A stretch of 22,611 bases of DNA from IMG/VR virus record IMGVR_UViG_2687453449_000006, one strand, 5' to 3'. The notes beneath the pieces were generated by a model. It saw only the letters and a list, made by a program, of their open reading frames with translations, did not search any database and was not told where the DNA came from. Source of the DNA: a virus. Its lineage: Duplodnaviria > Heunggongvirae > Uroviricota > Caudoviricetes. Position numbers and translations under genes: made by a program. Shown piece after piece: positions 1,960 to 13,121 of the stretch. How positions within the stretch are numbered: the stretch's first letter is position 1; every line of letters begins with the position of its first letter.

Positions 1960-2253
1960 TCACCCACGATTAACCAACAGCCAGACCAGCAGACACGCCA
2001 CCACCGGCACAGCAAAATCCATCAGGCTTGCCACATCCCATGCACGTGTATCAAAACCGCCCCACCACGGCATATTCATTCGCTTGCCATGCCCGAACAT
2101 TTCGATCCAGCGATATTCTGCCTGGGTGTGTTCACGCGCAATGAAGAACGTACAACCGGCTATCGCCCCGTAAGCCCAGTTCCCGGTAAAAAGACCAATC
2201 AGTAGCTGCGCAGCCACAGCACAAAGCGCATGAAGGAAAGGTGTTATATCCAT
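1960..2253 (-). CDS. Small hydrophobic protein (97 aa), two predicted transmembrane segments; function unknown
   Basis: ATG at 2253 preceded by a strong Shine-Dalgarno (AAGGAGG, reverse complement of 2257-2263) and starting 11 nt after the stop of the upstream ORF; hydrophobic stretches ALCAVAAQLLIGLFTGNWAYGAIAGCTFFIA and LMDFAVPVVACLLVWLLV. Confidence 0.55.
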   Translation of the reverse strand: MDITPFLHALCAVAAQLLIGLFTGNWAYGAIAGCTFFIAREHTQAEYRWIEMFGHGKRMNMPWWGGFDTRAWDVASLMDFAVPVVACLLVWLLVNRG

Positions 2254-2263
2254 TACTCCTCCT

Positions 2264-2968
2264 TTATCCGATATCGCTTCGGGAAACGGATAACAACTTT
2301 AATTCTGACTCAAGTTCATCAACTCTTTCAGTCAGCTTCTGGATATGGTGAATCAGTGGAACAACCAGACGTTCGTACATTACACCTTCGGCAACAAGGC
2401 CATTGCTGGAAATAGCTTCAGGAGCATCATCTTCGTTAGCTGGTCGCCAGTGTACAAACTGAGGGGCAATTTCTCCTACTTCCTCGGCAATCAATCCGTA
2501 GAATCCCCAGTCACGCCTGTCATTTTCGCATTGCGACCTGTACCACACAGGGCGCATCCTGAAAATGAGATCGGCGTGCTCTGAATCTATCGTCTCTACT
2601 GAATGTTTATAGCGAATAGACGATGTTGACCGCAGTACAGACGAAATTGCAGGGTCAGGATTAAGATAAAGGTTTGCCGCCGCTGTAGTCGTGCCCAATC
2701 CCCACATATAAAACGCTTCACGGCCAGTCAACGGGTAAAAATCTCCACCATAACGACCGCTTTCCAGATCGTTCACTTCCAGTTTGTTTTTCAGCTTATT
2801 ATCAACTTCAGTTTTTGTGTATCTGGTGCTGATATCCTGCTTTGCACTGGTCATATCAGTCTGAAGCGTTGATACTTTTCCGTTAATTGAGGAAATATCT
2901 TCCTTAGTTTTACTGACATCTCCCTTTAGCGTGGTGATATCTCCTGGAATTACTGTCGATGTAGCCAT
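2264..2968 (-). CDS. Tail-fiber-like protein (234 aa) with a C-terminal intramolecular-chaperone (peptidase S74-like) domain
   Basis: ATG at 2968 with SD GAGGGAG; C-terminal region SSIRYKHSVETIDSEHADLIFRMRPVWYRS...FYGLIAEEVGEIAPQFVHW...MYERLVVPLIHHIQKLTERVDELESEL resembles the S-D-x-R-x-K ... GLIAQEV ... coiled-coil pattern of endosialidase-chaperone domains (from memory, not searched). Confidence 0.55.
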   Translation of the reverse strand: MATSTVIPGDITTLKGDVSKTKEDISSINGKVSTLQTDMTSAKQDISTRYTKTEVDNKLKNKLEVNDLESGRYGGDFYPLTGREAFYMWGLGTTTAAANLYLNPDPAISSVLRSTSSIRYKHSVETIDSEHADLIFRMRPVWYRSQCENDRRDWGFYGLIAEEVGEIAPQFVHWRPANEDDAPEAISSNGLVAEGVMYERLVVPLIHHIQKLTERVDELESELKLLSVSRSDIG

Positions 2969-2977
2969 TTGTCTCCC

Positions 2978-3259
2978 TCACATCCAGCCACGAAGTTGAT
3001 GCTCAACAACAACCGCGTATTTATCGAATATTGACGATTTTTTTACATCATTAATGATGCGCACGTTTACAAAATATCCGTCTTCCTTAACACATACCGG
3101 TTCGCCATCTTCAGTCAGTTCTCCGGTTTCTTTGTACACGTTACCTATCACGTCAATAAGAATATCATCCTGCATCGACTCGTCATCATAATAGCCAATA
3201 CTCTCCATAAAGGCCGAAAAGTCGGCCCTGTCTGCAAATTTGAGTGTTAAATCTTTCAT
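2978..3259 (-). CDS. Acidic hypothetical protein (93 aa), translationally coupled to stf
   Basis: ATG at 3259-3257 overlaps the stf stop TGA at 3258-3256 (ATGA overlap); SD-like GGGGAGAG upstream; no recognisable family. Confidence 0.5.
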   Translation of the reverse strand: MKDLTLKFADRADFSAFMESIGYYDDESMQDDILIDVIGNVYKETGELTEDGEPVCVKEDGYFVNVRIINDVKKSSIFDKYAVVVEHQLRGWM

Positions 3260-5601
3260 TTAATACTCTCCCCCATTTGCGCATCAGTTAATTCTTTATG
3301 CCAGATACGCAGATTACGGATATGACCAAAAAGATGATACTCCCCATTAGTGCCCTGCCCTCCAATTCGCAATACTGCCCGTGGAACAATTGAAGTCCAT
3401 GTTGTTTTTGCCGCAACAGATAATTCACCATTACATACGGCCTGAACATCTCCATCAGCGCCACAACGGAAGCCTGAAATGATTTTCCTCTGGGTTGTTG
3501 CCACATATTTATTACACCCTCCCATAGAAATAAAAGGAGAACCGGCATCAGAGAAATTATTACCACGGAATCCATGCGTGAACAGACCATTTTCCTGATA
3601 ATCTTTAACATTAAAGATTAATGGTGATTTGCTGGGAGGGATATCCCAGTTTTTATTAACTTCAACAAGAGCACTGAATGGTAATCGGTGAATATTGTTT
3701 CTTACAGGTATTGTCACCATGTCGCTGGAGCGAGTGCCAGGAGCCCCTTCAGTAATGATAAATGACGTCCTGTACGACCCAATCTCCGCCTGAGGCATCG
3801 CAATATCTAACGTAGAGCCATTGGGGATAATACTGATTCCAGGCATCGCCAGGATTTCAAATCTTGAGCTGATTATCATTTCCGCATCTGCAAAAAGAGT
3901 GGCGGTAAACAACCACCATTCACCGACTCTTTCTGCCGTCACCGTCACATTATTTCCATGAACAACATTTCCCGTAACAGGATCCAGAACTGCATCTGAA
4001 TGAAAAACAAACGCACCATTATCAGACATTTTTCCGAACCTTGCACGACACCGGGAATTATCACTTTTCGTCAGACACGATATCGTCGTATAAGAACCTG
4101 CCGGGCAGGTGTAAGCATCATTCGTGTTTACAGCAATTGCCTGATATCCTTGTGCTGTCGGATTTTCATTAATAACAGTTATCCTTCCATAGTTAAACCC
4201 CTTATCACTGTCGAACGACTCAACAGACACACTACCCGTGTTATTCCATGCTTCTGGTGTATTTGAATTTCTGAAATAGTTTGTTCTCTGTCCTTCAATC
4301 AGCAAACCTTCTCGTTCAAATCGCGGTTCGTCAACTTCAGCAACGGTTAATACACCTGATTTATTAATGTATGTTGCACCTGATGCGCGTTTGAAGCTAA
4401 CAACCTTATCGGATGGCATTTTAATAACATCATCACCTACGGTTATTTGCTTATAACCAGGCGAAAAGCCAGCAAGCATATCCAGTGAATCGTTAAACGG
4501 TATCCACACATCAGGCAGTGGCTGTAAGACATATTTATACGGCTCTGCTGCCTGGCTTGCATACTCTCTGGCTGCATCCTCACTTGCTTTAGCTGCTGTC
4601 TGGCTTGCTGCCGATGCTTGCGCCGAGTTCGCCGCTGCAGTCTCGCTTGTCTTTGCATTGGTTTCACTGGTTTTTGCAGCTTTTTGACTGTTTGCTGATG
4701 CAGTGGCAGAAGCAGCCGCCGCACTTGCAGAACCAGCTGCAGCACTCTCGCTTTCGGCTGCTGCATCCTGACTGCTTTTCGCCGCAGTTTCGCTGGCTTT
4801 GGCATTTGTTTCGCTGGTCTTCGCTGCCGTCTGGCTGGACTTTGCGTTAGTTTCGCTCGTCTTCGCTGCTTTCTGGCTGTTAGCCGCAGCAGTTGCTGAT
4901 CCAGCTGCTGCAGTCGCAGAACCGGCTGCCGCGCTCTCGCTTTCGGCTGCTGCATTCTGGCTATTTTTCGCCGCAGTTTCACTGGCTTTGGCATTCGTTT
5001 CGCTGGTTTTCGCTGCCGTCTGGCTGGACTTTGCGTTGGTTTCGCTCGTCTTTGCGGCTGTCTCGCTGTTTTTCGCGTTGGTTTCTGATTTTTTGGCTGC
5101 TGTCGCGGAGTTTGCCGATGCAGTCTGCGAGGACGCTGCCGCCTGTGCGCTGTTAGCTGCATTCGTTTCTGAGGTTTTCGCCGCGTTCTTCGATGATGCC
5201 GCTGCAGTTTCGGATTTCTTTGCCGCCGCTGCGCTCTGAGAGGCGGCTTCGGCGTTGCGTGCCGCTTCTTCCACCATTGCCTCAAAACGACGCAATGCCT
5301 CCGGCATGACATCATCTTCCGTCATGGCACCGAGAAAATCATTCAGCGTACCTGGTCTGGAACCTTCATAGACGGTAATGGTTCCGGCATGTGAAGGCGG
5401 AAAACCTTCAACCAGCAGGGTGACGCTGTACTGGCCATGCTCAACATCCATGCTGTAACGCCCGGCTTCATCCGGATTTTCAGAGGCCACCGTGTTCACC
5501 AGTACCGTGGTGCTGTTACGCTTTGCCTTCAGTTGAATAGTGCAGTTCTGTATTGGTTTTCCCGCACCATCTTTCAGCACACCTGAAATCTGTACTGCCA
5601 T
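3256..5601 (-). CDS. stf: Side tail fiber protein, lambda Stf-like N-terminus, Ala/Ser/Thr-rich repetitive shaft, LamG/lectin-like C-terminal domain
   Basis: N-terminus MAVQISGVLKDGAGKPIQNCTIQLKAKRNSTTV...GRYSMDVEHGQYSV...FPPSHAGTITVYE matches lambda Stf as recalled; true ATG at 5601-5599 with SD GGAGTG (the track's M at 5607 is a GTG). C-terminal ...LRIGGQGTNGEYHLFGHIRNLRIWHKELTDAQM is typical of LamG-like jelly-roll domains. Confidence 0.85.
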   Translation of the reverse strand: MAVQISGVLKDGAGKPIQNCTIQLKAKRNSTTVLVNTVASENPDEAGRYSMDVEHGQYSVTLLVEGFPPSHAGTITVYEGSRPGTLNDFLGAMTEDDVMPEALRRFEAMVEEAARNAEAASQSAAAAKKSETAAASSKNAAKTSETNAANSAQAAASSQTASANSATAAKKSETNAKNSETAAKTSETNAKSSQTAAKTSETNAKASETAAKNSQNAAAESESAAAGSATAAAGSATAAANSQKAAKTSETNAKSSQTAAKTSETNAKASETAAKSSQDAAAESESAAAGSASAAAASATASANSQKAAKTSETNAKTSETAAANSAQASAASQTAAKASEDAAREYASQAAEPYKYVLQPLPDVWIPFNDSLDMLAGFSPGYKQITVGDDVIKMPSDKVVSFKRASGATYINKSGVLTVAEVDEPRFEREGLLIEGQRTNYFRNSNTPEAWNNTGSVSVESFDSDKGFNYGRITVINENPTAQGYQAIAVNTNDAYTCPAGSYTTISCLTKSDNSRCRARFGKMSDNGAFVFHSDAVLDPVTGNVVHGNNVTVTAERVGEWWLFTATLFADAEMIISSRFEILAMPGISIIPNGSTLDIAMPQAEIGSYRTSFIITEGAPGTRSSDMVTIPVRNNIHRLPFSALVEVNKNWDIPPSKSPLIFNVKDYQENGLFTHGFRGNNFSDAGSPFISMGGCNKYVATTQRKIISGFRCGADGDVQAVCNGELSVAAKTTWTSIVPRAVLRIGGQGTNGEYHLFGHIRNLRIWHKELTDAQMGESIK
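4560..5260 (-). repeat. In-frame tandem repeats inside stf (189-bp / 63-codon unit, about 2.5 copies, with 42-bp sub-repeats)
   Basis: The motif ctctcgctttcggctgctgca occurs at 4745 and 4934 (offset 189 bp) and the surrounding ~105 nt are near-identical; protein repeats AAKTSETNAKSSQTAAKTSETNAKASETAAK...AAAESESAAAGSA. Confidence 0.8.
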
Positions 5602-5659
5602 ATTCACTCCACAAATAAAAAAGGCGCCATTTCTGGCGCCCGTATCTGGGTTATAAAAT

Positions 5660-8506
5660 TCAGCTAATCATGATGCCTGCAGTGGCTTTCTTCATCACCA
5701 CAACCAGCAAATCGCTGATACTTGCTGTGGGATACCAGCCATTTACCAGCCATGCCGATACAGAAAATTCCAGTGTCATTACACCACTGCCTGCAGGCAT
5801 ATCAATAACACCCGTATATATCAGCGTATTATCCAGAGCCGTTCGGTTATAAATTTCAGCACCGTTTTTTCGTACTATCAGACGGCATGAGGAGTAGATA
5901 TCAGTATGATCTTGCTCATGTTTAGCGCCACTGAATGCCACCGCCGGAATAACAATTTGCCGGTCAAACGGCTGATCGTCATAAACCCTGACGGTAATGG
6001 TCCCTGATGGCCACCGCTCCGGTGCACGGGAGTCCCGGGGGAAAGCTTTGCCCACTGTTTTAACGAGATCGCCTTCAATCTGGTTCGCGGACAGTTTTCC
6101 CAGAACCCGGCAGTTCTCGTTAATCGTGACGTTGTTGAGCGTCCCGGAGTTCGCATTCACGTTACCGCTAATATCGGCATTTTTCGCCGTCAGCCGCCCG
6201 TCCGGTGTCAGGGAAAATGCCGGAGGATTACCGCCGCTGGTAATGGTGGGAGCCGTCAGATATTTCAGGAACACTTCGTTCATGAATATCTGATCGCCCT
6301 GACCAACAAACATCGGCTTTGTGTTGCCATTCGCAGGATTAATCATCGCAATCCTGTCCGCCGCCAGCAGCACCTGACTCTGCATACCGTCAGGGGTATT
6401 CTCAATACCGGCACCAATACCCGCGATATAAAGGCGTCCGTCCTGCATCTGCTGCAGCTTCACAGCCCACATGCTGTTCAGGTTATTATTTGTATCAACC
6501 TGAACCTTCTGTATCTGCTGGATTGCCGCACTCTGGTCTTCCAGTTTCTTATTGACGGTCTGCGTGATTTCATTACTGACATCCGTGATGGACGTTCTGA
6601 TTTCCGCCAGGTCAGGCGCAAGCTGACCGTTATCAATCTGCGTCCACAACTCCTGAGCCAGATGGGTTTTCCCTATCTCTCCTTTGAAAAAATTCAGATA
6701 GCCGGATGCATCATCACTCGGCTGGCCAACAGCCTCCACGAATGCCGATTTGCCAACGGTGTTCACACTGCGGATGTAAAAATAATAATCATGGCCCGGT
6801 TTGATATTGATACTGGCGGCTATCCAGTACAGCGCCGTGCCAAGATAGCGTGCTGTGGTTTCAACCTGCCTGATATCCGCAATCCGCTTTTCCGAGAACC
6901 AGAACTCAAACTGTACCGTCGGATCATAAACCGCAAGATGCGGCGTGGCGGTTATCTGAAAATACCCCGGTGTCAGCTCAATCTGCGACGGCGCTGCCGG
7001 TGCGGCAATCCGGAACGATACCGACGCCGGCTCGCCCTGCTGCCCCCACGCATTTACTGCCCGGACTGTCAGCCTGTAGTTCCCCAGAGCCAGTTGTGTG
7101 AAGCGGTAAGTGGTTTCCGTCGTCCGGGCCGTGCTGACCAGTCGCTCACGGCCGTCATCCGCTGCCACGGTCAGGCGAAGCAGGAAGCTCACGCCCTTCA
7201 CCACCTTCGGCGTATCCCAGCGGGCCAGCACCTGGTATTCCCCGCTGTCTGCGGTGACTTCTGCGGTCAGGTGCTGCACCGCTGGCGGCGTGACACCATT
7301 TACCGTGCCGCTCTGGTCGCCGTCAAAGTGCGCCCCGTTATCCACGATGGCCTCTTTTTCCGGTACATGCTGCACGGCGGTGATGGCATACGTGCCGTCG
7401 TCGTTCTCACGGATACTCACGCAGCGGAACAGGCGCTGGCGCAACGTCGGCAGCTTCAGCCCCCATACGCTGTATTCAGCAACGCCGTCAGGAACACGGC
7501 TCACTTTCACCTTCACGCCGTCGGTGACGGACTGAACCTCCACGCTGACCGGACTCCCCTGCCCGTCAACCAGGCTTATCAGCGTGGTGCCGGAAGATGG
7601 CAGCGTGATTTCACGGTCGAGCGTCAGCGTCCGGGTCTGGCTGTTTACCGCCAGCACGCGCCCGCCGGTGCGGATACCGGCATAGTCATCATCGCAGATT
7701 TCAATGACATCGCCCGGTACATGGCGAAGCCCTTCGGCACCCACGCTGAAGTCCACGGTCTGCGTTTCCAGCAGCTCCGTTTTAATCAGCCACAGCCCGG
7801 CGCGGTGTGCCTGCCCCCGGCTGGTACAGCCAAAGGCATCCATCTTCGTGACGTTACGACCGTAACGGAGAATGGCCTGCGTATCTTCAACAAGCTCTGT
7901 CGCCGTCTCCCAGCCGTTATTCGGGTCAATCCAGTTCACCTCAACGGCATTATGGCGGTCCTTCAGGGCGCTGAAGCTGTAGCGGAACGGCGCGCCATCA
8001 TCCGGCATCACCACATTACTGCGGTTATAGGTCCACACCTTATCTGATGGTCGGTCCTGCACGAACGTCAGCGTCTGCCCGTTCCATACCGGCATACAGC
8101 GCATCGCCGAGCAGAAATCACTGAGCACATCCCACGCCTTACGCTGCGTGGTCAGGTAGGCATTACAGGTGATGCGCGGCTCCGTGCCGCCAAAACCGTC
8201 CGGCACTGACTGGTCGCAGTACTGGCCGATGACATACAGCGCCCATTTATCCACATCCGCCGCACCAAGACGTTTCCCCATGCCGTAGCGCGGGTGGGTC
8301 AGCATATCCCACAGACACCAGGCCGGGTTGTTGCTGTATGCCGGCTTAAACGTTCCGTCCCAGATACCGCTGTATTGCCGCGTCTGCGGGTTATAGTTCG
8401 ACGGCACCTGCAGAATGCGCCCGCGAAGATGATAATTACGGCTCACCTGCTGGCTGCCGAACTGCTCCGAGTCCACCTGCACGCCGACCAGTGCCGTGTT
8501 CGGGTA
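5660..8506 (-). pseudogene. J: Tail tip / host specificity protein J, N-terminally truncated (C-terminal ~948 codons retained)
   Basis: Translation (..[41 protein letters not shown]... to ...[14 protein letters not shown]...) is collinear with lambda J as recalled. The frame is closed by a stop at 8507-8509 and has no in-frame ATG at its 5' end (first codon in the track is a GTG at 8482). Confidence 0.85.
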
Positions 8507-9011
8507 TCAGTTCATCCAGCGCGGCTGCTTTGTTCATGGCTTTGATGATATCCCGTTTCAGGAAATCAACATGTCGGTTTTCCAGTTCCGGAAAACGCCG
8601 CTGCACCGACAGGGGGATCCCGTCGAGAATACTGGCAATTTCACCTGCGATCCGCGACAGCACGAAAGTACAGAATGCGGTTTCCACCACTTCAGCGGAG
8701 TCTCTGGCATTTTTCAGCTCCTGTGCGTCGGCCTGCGCACGCGTAAGTCGATGGCGTTCGTACTCAATAGTCCCTGGCTGGAGATCTGTCTCGCTGGCCT
8801 GCCGCAGTTCTTCAACTTCCCGGCGCAGCTTTTCGTTCTCAATTTCAGCATCCCTTTCGGCATACCATCTTATAACGGCGGCAGAGTCATAAAGCACCTC
8901 ATTACCCTTGCCACCGCCTCGCAGAACGGGCATTCCCTGTTCCTGCCAGTTCTGAATGGTACGGATACTCGCACCGAAAATGTCAGCCAGCTGCTTTTTG
9001 TTGACTTCCAT
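8436..9011 (-). CDS. nohD: Terminase small subunit Nu1 homolog, C-terminally truncated and fused to 23 out-of-frame codons of J sequence (191 aa)
   Basis: ATG at 9011; residues 1-168 ([46 protein letters not shown]...[14 protein letters not shown]) match lambda Nu1 including the N-terminal winged HTH; after ...CTGATACC (about 8503) the sequence switches to J-derived DNA. Confidence 0.85.
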
Positions 9012-10279: not shown

Positions 10280-10741
10280 CTATCTGCACTGCTCATTAAT
10301 ATACTTCTGGGTTCCTTCCAGTTGTTTTTGCATAGTGATCAGCCTCTCTCTGAGGGTGAAATAATCCCGTTCAGCGGTGTCTGCCAGTCGGGGGGAGGCT
10401 GCATTATCCACGCCGGAGGCGGTGGTGGCTTCACGCACTGACTGACAGACTGCTTTGATGTGCAACCGACGACGACCAGCGGCAACATCATCACGCAGAG
10501 CATCATTTTCAGCTTTCGCATTAGCTAACTCCTTCGTGTATTTTTCATCCAGTGCAGCAACATCACGCTGGCGCATCTGCATGTCAGTAATTGCCGCGTT
10601 CGCCAGCTTCAGTTCTCTGGCATTTTTGTCGCGCTGGGCTTTGTAGGTAATGGCGTTATCACGGTAATGATTAACAGCCCATGACAGGCAGACGATGATG
10701 CAGATAACCAGAGCGGAGATAATCGCGGTTACTCTGTTCAT
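10280..10741 (-). CDS. rzpD: Rz i-spanin (153 aa)
   Basis: True ATG at 10741-10739 overlapping the endolysin stop (ATGA); N-terminal TM segment, coiled-coil, C-terminal ...YINEQCR; the track's M at 10753 is a GTG. Confidence 0.88.
10339..10521 (-). CDS. rzoD: Rz1 o-spanin lipoprotein embedded in the +1 frame of Rz (60 aa)
   Basis: ATG at 10521; lipobox LVVVGC and proline-rich stretch [15 protein letters not shown]; entirely nested inside rzpD. Confidence 0.85.
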
Positions 10742-11235
10742 TGCTGACCCCACAAACAGATTTCACGCTCAATCTCACGACGAGTCATGAGACCTTTCCA
10801 TTGCTTACCGCCAGCATATGTCCAGCGACGTAGCTGATCACATGCGCCTTTGATATCGCCCTGGTTTATTTTGCGAAGAAGCGTCGATGTTCTGAAATTG
10901 CCAGCGCCCACGTTGTAAACGAACGAGTAAAGAGCGCCGCGCGTTGTTTCCGGTATATCAACTTTTATGTACGGGTTAATTTGTCTGGCGACCGTGGCAA
11001 GGTCTTTATTCAGGAGGGCTTTGCATTCTGCTTTGGTATACGTTTTACCGAGCATGATGTCTTTTCCTGTATGCCCGTGACATACAGTCCATACACCAAC
11101 AATATCTTTGTATGGTATGTAGCTGACACCTTCCAGACCATCGTTACCACTTGGGCCAGTGATTAACACTGATGCTATAGCAATTGCTCCGCCACCAATA
11201 GCAGCAGCAACGGCTTTTCGTAATGATGGAGGCAT
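10738..11235 (-). CDS. rrrD: SAR endolysin (phage 21 R-type lysozyme, 165 aa)
   Basis: ATG at 11235; N-terminal signal-arrest-release segment [20 protein letters not shown] followed by a lysozyme domain; matches R21/RrrD as recalled. Confidence 0.9.
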
Positions 11236-12038: not shown

Positions 12039-13121
12039 ATGAAAAAATTAACAGTGGCAATTTCTGCTGTAGCTGCATCAGTACTGATGGCGATGTCTGC
12101 TCAGGCAGCTGAAATTTATAATAAAGACAGTAACAAGCTGGATCTGTACGGGAAAGTTAATGCCAAGCACTACTTTTCCTCTAACGATGCAGATGATGGT
12201 GATACTACTTATGCCCGTCTTGGCTTCAAAGGTGAAACCCAAATCAACGATCAACTGACTGGTTTCGGTCAGTGGGAATATGAATTCAAAGGCAACCGCG
12301 CTGAATCTCAAGGTTCCTCCAAAGACAAAACCCGTCTTGCATTTGCAGGCCTGAAATTCGGTGACTACGGCTCAATCGATTACGGCCGTAACTACGGTGT
12401 AGCATACGACATCGGTGCGTGGACTGACGTTCTGCCAGAATTCGGTGGCGATACCTGGACCCAAACAGATGTGTTCATGACTGGTCGCACCACTGGTGTT
12501 GCAACCTATCGTAACAACGACTTCTTTGGTCTGGTCGATGGCCTGAACTTTGCTGCTCAGTATCAGGGTAAAAATGACCGCACTGACGTAACTGAAGCCA
12601 ATGGTGATGGTTTCGGTTTCTCCACTACTTATGAGTATGAAGGATTCGGCGTGGGTGCAACCTATGCTAAATCAGATCGCACTGACGGTCAGGTCGCCTA
12701 TGGTAAGAGCAAATTCAATGCCTCCGGCAAAAATGCGGAAGTATGGGCTGCAGGCCTGAAATATGATGCGAACAATATCTATCTGGCTACCACATATTCT
12801 GAAACTCAGAATATGACCGTTTTTGGTAATAACCATATTGCAAACAAAGCACAAAACTTTGAAGCAGTAGCACAATATCAGTTTGACTTCGGTCTGCGAC
12901 CATCTGTTGCTTACCTTCAGTCAAAAGGTAAAGACCTTGGTGTTCATGGTGACCGAGACTTAGTCAAGTATGTCGATGTCGGTGCTACTTACTACTTTAA
13001 TAAAAACATGTCCACTTTTGTTGATTACAAAATCAACTTAATTGACGATAGTAAGTTTACCAAAACAGCTGGTATTGATACCGACGACATCGTCGCTGTA
13101 GGTCTGGTGTATCAGTTCTAA
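12039..13121 (+). CDS. nmpC: Outer-membrane general porin NmpC (OmpC/OmpF family), apparently intact (360 aa)
   Basis: ATG at 12039; signal peptide [30 protein letters not shown]; porin signature with C-terminal ...VAVGLVYQF; uninterrupted 360-codon frame. Confidence 0.9.

Follow-up and report, generated by a model that had tools for sequence, protein, structure and literature searches.

A nine-heptad tandem repeat in the side tail fibre shaft of prophage DLP12 and its copy-number alleles in related phages

How the shaft of a phage tail fibre may change in length is the question raised by the gene stf in a stretch of 22,611 nucleotides of caudoviricete virus DNA (IMG/VR record IMGVR_UViG_2687453449_000006), the whole of which is referred to here as the window. 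An earlier note on this DNA, made from its letters, had flagged the interval 4560-5260, which lies inside stf, as a fibre shaft with 189-bp in-frame tandem repeats. Judged by its sequence, the encoded protein is the side tail fibre (Stf) of the defective lambdoid prophage DLP12 of an Escherichia coli B-type strain. It is 100% identical to ECB_RS02690 (WP_000290529) of E. coli B REL606, which RefSeq names "prophage tail fiber N-terminal domain-containing protein"; identical copies are also present in many other E. coli genomes, and at least 80% of stf is present in 113 complete genomes. It is already known that the gene is annotated, that its domain families are catalogued and that tail fibre genes are mosaic, and for the homologous module of T5-like phages both a C-terminal domain of lectin type and a branched fibre have been described. 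What is added here is that, in the sequences compared, the shaft belonging to this Stf lineage, which is widespread in E. coli, acts as an in-frame minisatellite of one to three units. The explanation that we consider probable as a whole is that the repeat-bearing shaft of the DLP12 fibre gains and loses units by misaligned recombination, and that the protein, with its lectin-like end, is the proximal member of a fibre that branches.

The 189-bp in-frame repeat has been recovered by Tandem Repeats Finder (TRF), by a repeat search and by shuffles of heptad blocks. TRF reports the 189-bp period at 4633-5070, with 2.3 copies, 83% matches, no indels and a score of 610, together with nested periods of 21 and 42 bp over 4552-5104, while the repeat search pairs 4633-4821 with 4822-5010 at 81%. 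Read along the gene, unit A spans 4912-5100 (aa 168-230), unit B spans 4723-4911 (aa 231-293) and unit C spans 4534-4722 (aa 294-356). Units A and B are identical at 158 of 189 positions, which makes two good units, and the third unit is degenerate (115/189, or 61%, to B). The similarity between A and B peaks at 97/105 (92.4%) in the best 105-nt window and at 111/120 (92.5%) in the best 120-nt window, and the longest exact match between units is 29 nt; the description of stretches of about 105 nt as nearly identical was in this respect slightly generous.

The same note had taken sub-repeats of 14 residues as the building block. Heptad analysis gives a protein period of 7 residues instead, with Ser at position 3 in 32 of the 33 heptads of the shaft and Ala at position 7 in 30 of them, and the 63-residue unit is exactly nine heptads of a sequence rich in Ala, Ser, Thr, Glu and Lys. 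The 3/4 spacing of these small residues reads as a coiled-coil core signature, and the shaft would form a trimeric coiled coil in which Ser and Ala occupy two core positions. In lambda, the segment 102-393, which is homologous to the stf shaft, has been described as a proximal trimeric coiled coil (PMC12617516). Because the whole shaft is made of similar heptads, the proper null model for the longer period is a shuffle of its 33 heptad (21-nt) blocks, with the best 189-nt self-match as the statistic. In 2000 such shuffles this value was 119 ± 4.4 (maximum 142), against 162 observed, a value that no shuffle reached (0/2000).

The comparison of copy number among relatives, which had been proposed as a check, reveals one, two and three units at both the protein and the DNA level. 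Shaft length, defined as the distance between the conserved motifs MVEE and PLPDVW and measured in 171-172 homologues, is a multiple of 7 in 168 of them; the peaks comprise 43 cluster representatives at 189 aa, 108 at 252 aa (the Stf of the window among them) and 6 at 315 aa. These statistics are based on protein cluster representatives, which are no random population sample. On their sequences, shafts of 189, 252 and 315 aa correspond to one, two and three repeat units. Close relatives with the same C-terminus have 845, 782 and 718 aa and are one 63-residue block in the array apart, and within one C-terminal allele the one-, two- and three-unit proteins are, respectively, P0003, the Stf of the window together with P0002, and P0001. 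In the DNA of a three-unit allele on a 302-kb contig (L002), TRF finds 3.2 copies with 91% matches, and it finds no 189-bp array in that of a one-unit allele (L003). Two complete phage genomes deposited as isolates also differ in this respect, IdasGreatGrand having one unit and PhiR49_1 two.

The origin of these alleles can be followed at 31 diagnostic sites, those at which units A and B of the window differ. The three-unit allele begins with an A-like unit and closes with a B-like one; between them lies a unit whose first ~92 nt resemble B and which from position 104 on mainly resembles A. The single unit of the one-unit allele is the reciprocal of this, being A-like first and B-like over the last ~25 nt. 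These reciprocal A/B hybrids point to unequal crossing-over, or slipped pairing, in the near-identical core, and the crossover zone is likely the 4742-4861 core of unit B with its counterpart at 4931-5050. Since the units share such a core of ~120 nt at 92.5% identity, whole units could be gained or lost by misaligned recombination: the mispairing of A and B in recombination or replication would add or remove nine heptads, and both the reading frame and the heptad phase would survive each event. The natural 189-, 252- and 315-aa alleles and the reciprocal hybrid junctions thus lend support to the proposal that slipped or unequal recombination changes the length of the fibre in frame.

A different history would make the array a static relic of one ancient duplication, in which lengths differ through swaps of whole modules and not through exchange within the repeat. 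Tail fibre genes are indeed highly mosaic, this one has module boundaries near aa 360 and 440, and the copy classes are spread over several C-terminal allele groups, as would also be expected from recombination between modules. However, a B-head/A-tail unit in the three-copy allele and an A-head/B-tail unit in the one-copy allele are what unequal exchange within the array predicts, the flanking shaft is 92-100% identical between the two-copy and three-copy alleles compared, and the length classes are exactly 63 aa apart. We regard the history of module swaps as quite improbable.

Several points weigh against gain and loss of units by misaligned recombination. Three of the closest length variants, P0001, P0003 and P0004, are singletons from short (3-4 kb) ENA metagenome contigs, and tandem repeats are notorious for being misassembled, which raises the possibility that short-read or metagenome assembly produced the copy-number variants by collapsing or expanding the repeat. 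Nevertheless, the exact identity between units (29 nt at most) lies under the usual k-mer sizes, so that the array should be resolved by short-read assemblers, the extra unit of the three-copy alleles has its own substitutions, the one-unit protein P0203 occurs on 11 contigs, three-copy alleles are found on contigs of 300-580 kb, and the one-unit form is carried by IdasGreatGrand, an isolated phage; an origin of the variants in assembly is therefore highly improbable. The shortness of the perfect identity between units also bears on gain and loss of units itself, as the rate of exchange is probably low, which argues for rare events and not for phase variation (high-frequency contingency switching). 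Moreover, the shaft length is not a multiple of 7 in 4 of 172 homologues (P0194, P0210, P0004 and P0050, with 208, 218, 225 and 255 aa), which may indicate that the phase rule is not absolute, that these sequences contain sequencing or assembly errors, or that a stutter in heptad phase is tolerated. Finally, one and the same distal fibre of 346 aa accompanies the one-unit and the three-unit alleles, with no sign of length compensation, and copy number could be selectively neutral.

With regard to the enzymes that might carry out the exchange, phage recombinases of the Rad52 type recombine sequences that are ~88% identical and match perfectly over short stretches, while defective prophages, DLP12 among them, donate DNA to lambda by homologous recombination, tail fibre regions being exchanged at Rac and Qin (PMC3945230). 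These data make plausible both the unequal exchange between units and a role of the prophage copy as a reservoir. At ~0.148 nm per residue of coiled coil, a unit would measure ~9 nm, and the inferred shafts ~28, 37 and 47 nm for one, two and three units. A bolder idea, which we hold to be doubtful, is that the nine-heptad unit acts as a "reach tuner", in which recurrent unequal exchange shifts the reach of the fibre by ~9 nm under selection, and in which shaft and adapter are traded between lambdoid and T5-like phages. Phage recombinases of the Red or Rad52 type, tolerant of diverged repeats, may in that case catalyse the exchange, and selection would fit the reach of the fibre to the depth of the O-antigen or capsule layer of the host, or else to how long the central J fibre is. 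If this were true, host range would evolve along a second axis, fibre length, apart from the swapping of receptor-binding domains.

A survey of copy number in complete E. coli genomes by spread-sampled megablast was discarded, as it did not separate the copy classes reliably. Two of its partial-coverage matches are a two-unit allele with a different distal shaft end (IHE3034) and a pseudogene, interrupted by an internal stop, whose shaft is different (EcPF40). The IHE3034 gene (L009, 1034-3391) is given in RefSeq as two pseudogene fragments with the shaft unannotated; it is actually one frame of 785 codons, and the repeat-rich shaft appears to disrupt homology-based annotation. The repeat affects annotation in another way, since it yields long false open reading frames (ORFs), as had been noticed from the letters: four have been found in alternative frames (Table 1), all of which translate to low-complexity sequence rich in R/Q/K or A/L/F/V, and none of which is annotated by RefSeq/PGAP. 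A comparable antisense ORF, 'orf206b', is carried by the lambda annotation inside stf.

The shaft lies between two regions of very different affinity. The stop codon of stf is at 3256-3258 and its likely start is the ATG at 5601 (MAVQISGVLKDG...), while the mechanical ORF is longer (3256-5607), running from a GTG at 5607. The N-terminal 131 residues match PF08400 (phage_tail_N) with 224 bits (cut-off 26.6; E 5.8e-67), and this lambda-type collar domain would anchor the fibre to the tail, a role taken from the structure of Ur-lambda (PMC12617516). With lambda NC_001416 as the reference (the record 'Lambda_2E9' is not lambda), orf-401 shows 58.6% identity to aa 1-272 of Stf (E 5e-75), whereas nothing in aa 348-781 is detectably similar to orf-401, orf-314 or tfa of lambda (best E > 1). 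The contrast between a lambda-like N-terminal third and a C-terminus of other origin, stated in the earlier note, is therefore sound.

The domain swapping that the note had deduced from this contrast is seen as clear mosaic breakpoints in windowed identity, at the two junctions named above. Collar and shaft (aa 1-360) are 88-100% identical to lambdoid relatives and the adapter that follows (aa 361-440) is 75-85% identical to them, while the lectin-like domains (aa 441-760) are 12-58% identical to the compared alleles (22-58% for lambdoid ones). When the comparison is made with gp22 of the phage IrisVonRoten, which has an unrelated N-terminus, the adapter is 90-98% identical and the shaft 62-78%. 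A translated search of phage genomes also retrieves C-termini of 45-52% identity in T5-like phages, Dhillonvirus and other siphoviruses. The module of shaft and adapter is thus, on these identities, common to temperate and virulent phages. The likeness of the adapter to that of IrisVonRoten, a virulent T5-like phage (L005, 3915-6305), has the look of a fairly recent exchange between a temperate and a virulent phage; one of the papers cited here reports no recent temperate/virulent mosaics of that kind, with tail fibre genes excepted as a special case.

In place of the single LamG-like C-terminal domain that the note had proposed, the C-terminal 434 aa appear to comprise three parts, namely a conserved adapter of ~90 residues followed by two concanavalin A (ConA)/LamG-like beta-sandwich domains, D1 and D2, which would form the end of the protein. 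The adapter holds the motifs PLPDVWIPFNDSLDM, FKRASxATYINKSG and DEPRFExxGLLIEGQRTN, has low pLDDT in the monomer model, and is proposed, by analogy with the fibres modelled in PMC11990801, to be a junction or docking region for a distal fibre. Compared by sequence with PDB chains, the C-terminal 434 aa give no meaningful match (best E 0.13 and 0.62), and the Pfam family PF13385 (Laminin_G_3) stays below its gathering threshold on the last 57 residues (15.9 bits vs 27.6; E 0.015); this family is matched by 15 of 42 homologues at E <= 0.01 (best 5.6e-06). D1, on the other hand, exceeds the cut-off of the NCBIfam domain NF048003, 'GTA head spike fiber' (66.8 bits vs 36; aa 434-625, profile positions 1-181 of 182). 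Structure prediction, also suggested as a check, gave an all-beta AlphaFold2 model of aa 348-781 with a mean pLDDT of 76.5 (~90 for residues 442-607), and its fold neighbours in BFVD include many proteins of uncultured phages labelled as ConA-like superfamily, with ~370-450 aligned columns. The predicted fold is accordingly the jelly-roll beta-sandwich of the ConA-like superfamily, so the LamG/ConA-like character stands by fold, the Pfam threshold is not reached, and the single domain gives way to an adapter and two sandwiches. The fold neighbours, together with the literature on IrisVonRoten and on the gene transfer agent of Rhodobacter capsulatus (RcGTA), suggest that the lectin-like domains probably bind a surface glycan.

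Whether this end is the receptor-binding tip of the fibre depends on the genes that follow. Downstream of stf the cassette encodes a 93-aa protein, a 234-aa distal tail fibre and a 97-aa protein (Table 1). Between the 93-aa protein and gp23 of IrisVonRoten the identity is 38% (E 2e-23). The 234-aa protein bears a C-terminal PF13884 Peptidase_S74 intramolecular chaperone domain (27.1 bits vs cut-off 22), is 95.7% identical to its homologue in PhiR49_1, and has its N-terminal 32 aa, of the type MATSTVIPGDITTLK, in common with the 346-aa variant. In a follow-up of the BASEL collection, gp24 of IrisVonRoten has been modelled as a T-shaped distal fibre mounted on the proximal fibre gp22, the C-terminus of which is described as galectin-like and as a possible additional receptor-binding domain, and two receptor-binding domains, a Gp12-like RBD1 and a T5-like RBD2, are attributed to gp24 (PMC11990801). 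The phage crosses the O16 O-antigen barrier (PMC11990801; PMC8594841). By homology, the Stf of the window probably forms the proximal fibre, its lectin domain being an accessory and not the sole receptor binder; the separate distal fibre with an autochaperone domain, encoded after the 93-aa protein, would dock near the adapter. To call the C-terminal region the receptor-binding part, as the note did, is thus probably incomplete. Of the 234-aa protein, only residues 86-228 align to gp24 (residues 445-569), and at 234 aa against 574 aa the fibre of the window is probably too short to hold both receptor-binding domains of gp24.

The alternative, implicit in the note, is an unbranched fibre whose only receptor-binding tip would be the lectin-like C-terminus, with the 93-aa and 234-aa genes as morons of no relation to it or as a fibre of their own; we hold this to be unlikely. 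It is favoured by the fact that ConA-like, LamG and CBM40-like folds are typical carbohydrate binders, by the membership of D1 in the domain family of the RcGTA head spike fibre, which binds capsular polysaccharide (PMC10218006), and by the relative 'Lambda_2E9', in which stf, the 92-aa gene and the 97-aa gene are present and the distal fibre gene is absent. Against this, the order of stf, a gene of ~92-93 aa and a fibre with an S74 chaperone is kept in prophages and isolated phages of the lambdoid kind as well as in IrisVonRoten (gp22-gp23-gp24). Among distal fibres of differing length, the similarity is essentially confined to the N-terminal 15-32 residues and the C-terminal chaperone region, which suggests that the shared N-terminus is an attachment peptide. 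In addition, no other part of the protein is as conserved between phage families as the stretch immediately before the lectin domains, and the homologous T5-like proteins are those modelled in PMC11990801 as a proximal fibre with a distal fibre upon it. The LtfA/LtfB pair of DT57C was considered as the closest branched fibre and rejected, because LtfA ends in an S74 chaperone domain, unlike Stf.

As for the last gene of the cassette, copies of the 97-aa gene with 93-96% identity follow the cassette in the compared lambdoid relatives, in which the fibre genes differ. The 97-aa protein has a hydrophobic N-terminal half, and it is kept even where the distal fibre gene is missing (L006). In the intact relatives L002 and L003 a gene for a resolvase/invertase of the Pin/Hin type lies just past it (~10460-11050); the cassette of the window is adjoined instead by a tfa fragment and then by appY.

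The annotated surroundings of stf identify the prophage as DLP12. The window contains a ybcK-type recombinase, ybcL/M/N, ninE, rusA, quuD, a porin gene, essD-rrrD-rzpD, a Nu1-like small terminase gene, a truncated J, stf, three small genes, the tfa fragment and appY. By comparison with intact J, the remnant lacks the N-terminal FNIII-A_GpJ domain (~200 residues lost), and it adjoins, with overlap, the terminase gene (8436-9011, minus strand; Phage_Nu1). In intact relatives the gene order is J-lom-stf, and near the stf of the window tfa is present only as a 111-nt pseudogene fragment downstream. One deletion seems to have taken all the head genes and most of the tail genes while leaving the fibre cassette intact. 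Because these genes are lost, the prophage copy cannot build a virion, and the stf of the window would be an intact reservoir allele, open to infecting lambdoid phages by recombination. A terminator-like hairpin lies between the stop codon of J and the start codon of stf, for which reason the expression of stf might depend on Q-type antitermination. As for the strain, bases 1-331 of the window are 100% identical to the end of an IS1 (in REL606 the IS1A copy inside the porin gene, in reverse orientation), and the nmpC-type porin gene at 12039-13121, interrupted by IS1A in REL606, is intact in the window (360 aa; Porin_1). An intact porin gene together with an IS1 end points to an E. coli B-like strain whose IS1 positions differ from those of REL606.

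Table 1. Positions in the window of stf, its parts and the neighbouring features
Feature	Position	Strand	Basis or remark
stf, side tail fibre (probable proximal fibre) gene	3256..5601	minus	781 aa; ORF list and translation
Collar / tail-attachment domain, lambda Stf type (N-terminal)	5209..5601	minus	aa 1-131; PF08400
Heptad-repeat shaft	4546..5298	minus	21-nt periodicity; Ser/Ala heptad pattern; lambda homology
189-bp tandem array (TRF)	4633..5070	minus	63 codons, 9 heptads per unit
Near-identical core of unit B	4742..4861	minus	pairs with 4931-5050 in unit A, 111/120 identical
Conserved adapter region	4267..4545	minus	aa ~353-445; near-invariant columns in 42 homologues
Beta-sandwich domain D1, 'GTA head spike fiber' domain	3727..4302	minus	aa 434-625
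C-terminal LamG/pentraxin-like beta-sandwich domain D2	3259..3759	minus	aa 615-781
Longest alternative-frame ORF	4443..5315	minus	judged spurious
Other alternative-frame ORFs	4605-4850, 4799-5239, 4893-5156	plus	judged spurious
93-aa gene	2978..3259	minus	PHROG 1361; 4-nt overlap with stop end of stf; conserved partner
234-aa distal tail fibre gene	2264..2968	minus	PF13884 Peptidase_S74; PHROG tail-fibre families
97-aa hydrophobic protein gene, end of cassette	1960..2253	minus	PHROG 1443
Terminator-like hairpin	5622..5641	minus	GC-rich, 8-bp stem, then TTTTTTATTT; consensus scan only
J tail-tip gene remnant	5660..8482	minus	C-terminal 940 aa; Pfam J domains; RefSeq 'missing N-terminus'

A limited literature search found no prior description of variation in repeat number in the Stf shaft, a weak negative, and the series of copy-number alleles with reciprocal junctions is apparently an undescribed detail. 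Specialists would not be surprised by it; it is an instructive case of ordinary modular fibre evolution, and by itself it opens no new biological question. For the engineering of lambda particles with chimeric Stf, the shaft appears to be tolerant of steps of 63 residues, and the adapter offers a natural fusion point.

Several known systems serve as terms of comparison. The Stf of Gifsy-1, reported to be ~51% identical to that of Ur-lambda with conserved residues dispersed through its domains, binds Gal II of the lipopolysaccharide core (PMC12312913); it was rejected as a functional model, since its tip is of the lambda type and not of the lectin-like type. The Stf of lambda (Ur-lambda) resembles the one studied here in being encoded downstream of J and in having a PF08400 collar and a shaft of heptads rich in Ala, Ser, Thr and Glu. 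However, the lambda shaft is without the 189-bp tandem array, and its tip, which is similar to T4 gp37, needs Tfa and binds OmpC, whereas the stf of the window has lectin-like beta-sandwiches instead. D1 resembles the head spike fibre of RcGTA (rcc01080), described as beta-rich, lectin-like and two-lobed (PMC10218006), the domain of which sits on capsid spikes through an N-terminal peptide anchor of 10 residues, while in Stf it is fused to a lambda-type tail fibre shaft.

The module of IrisVonRoten (Bas32) has the same gene order, the C-terminal domains of its gp22 are ~47% identical to those of Stf, and its gp24 has both the N-terminal peptide and the C-terminal chaperone region in common with the 234-aa fibre. 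In contrast, the N-terminal attachment domain of gp22 is of the T5 type and not of the lambda type (8-22% identity to Stf), and its gene has only the 21- and 42-bp sub-repeats, with no 189-bp array. As regards length itself, there are parallels among other fibrous proteins of viruses and bacteria with length-variable repeat shafts, such as the pseudo-repeats of the adenovirus fibre shaft and the segmented coiled coil of fibritin (gpwac) of the T4 type, in which the number of repeats sets the length in frame and such changes leave the attachment and receptor-binding ends untouched. Compared with these, the unit of stf is a defined block of nine heptads that carries, in its hybrid junctions, direct sequence evidence of reciprocal unequal exchange between very close alleles.

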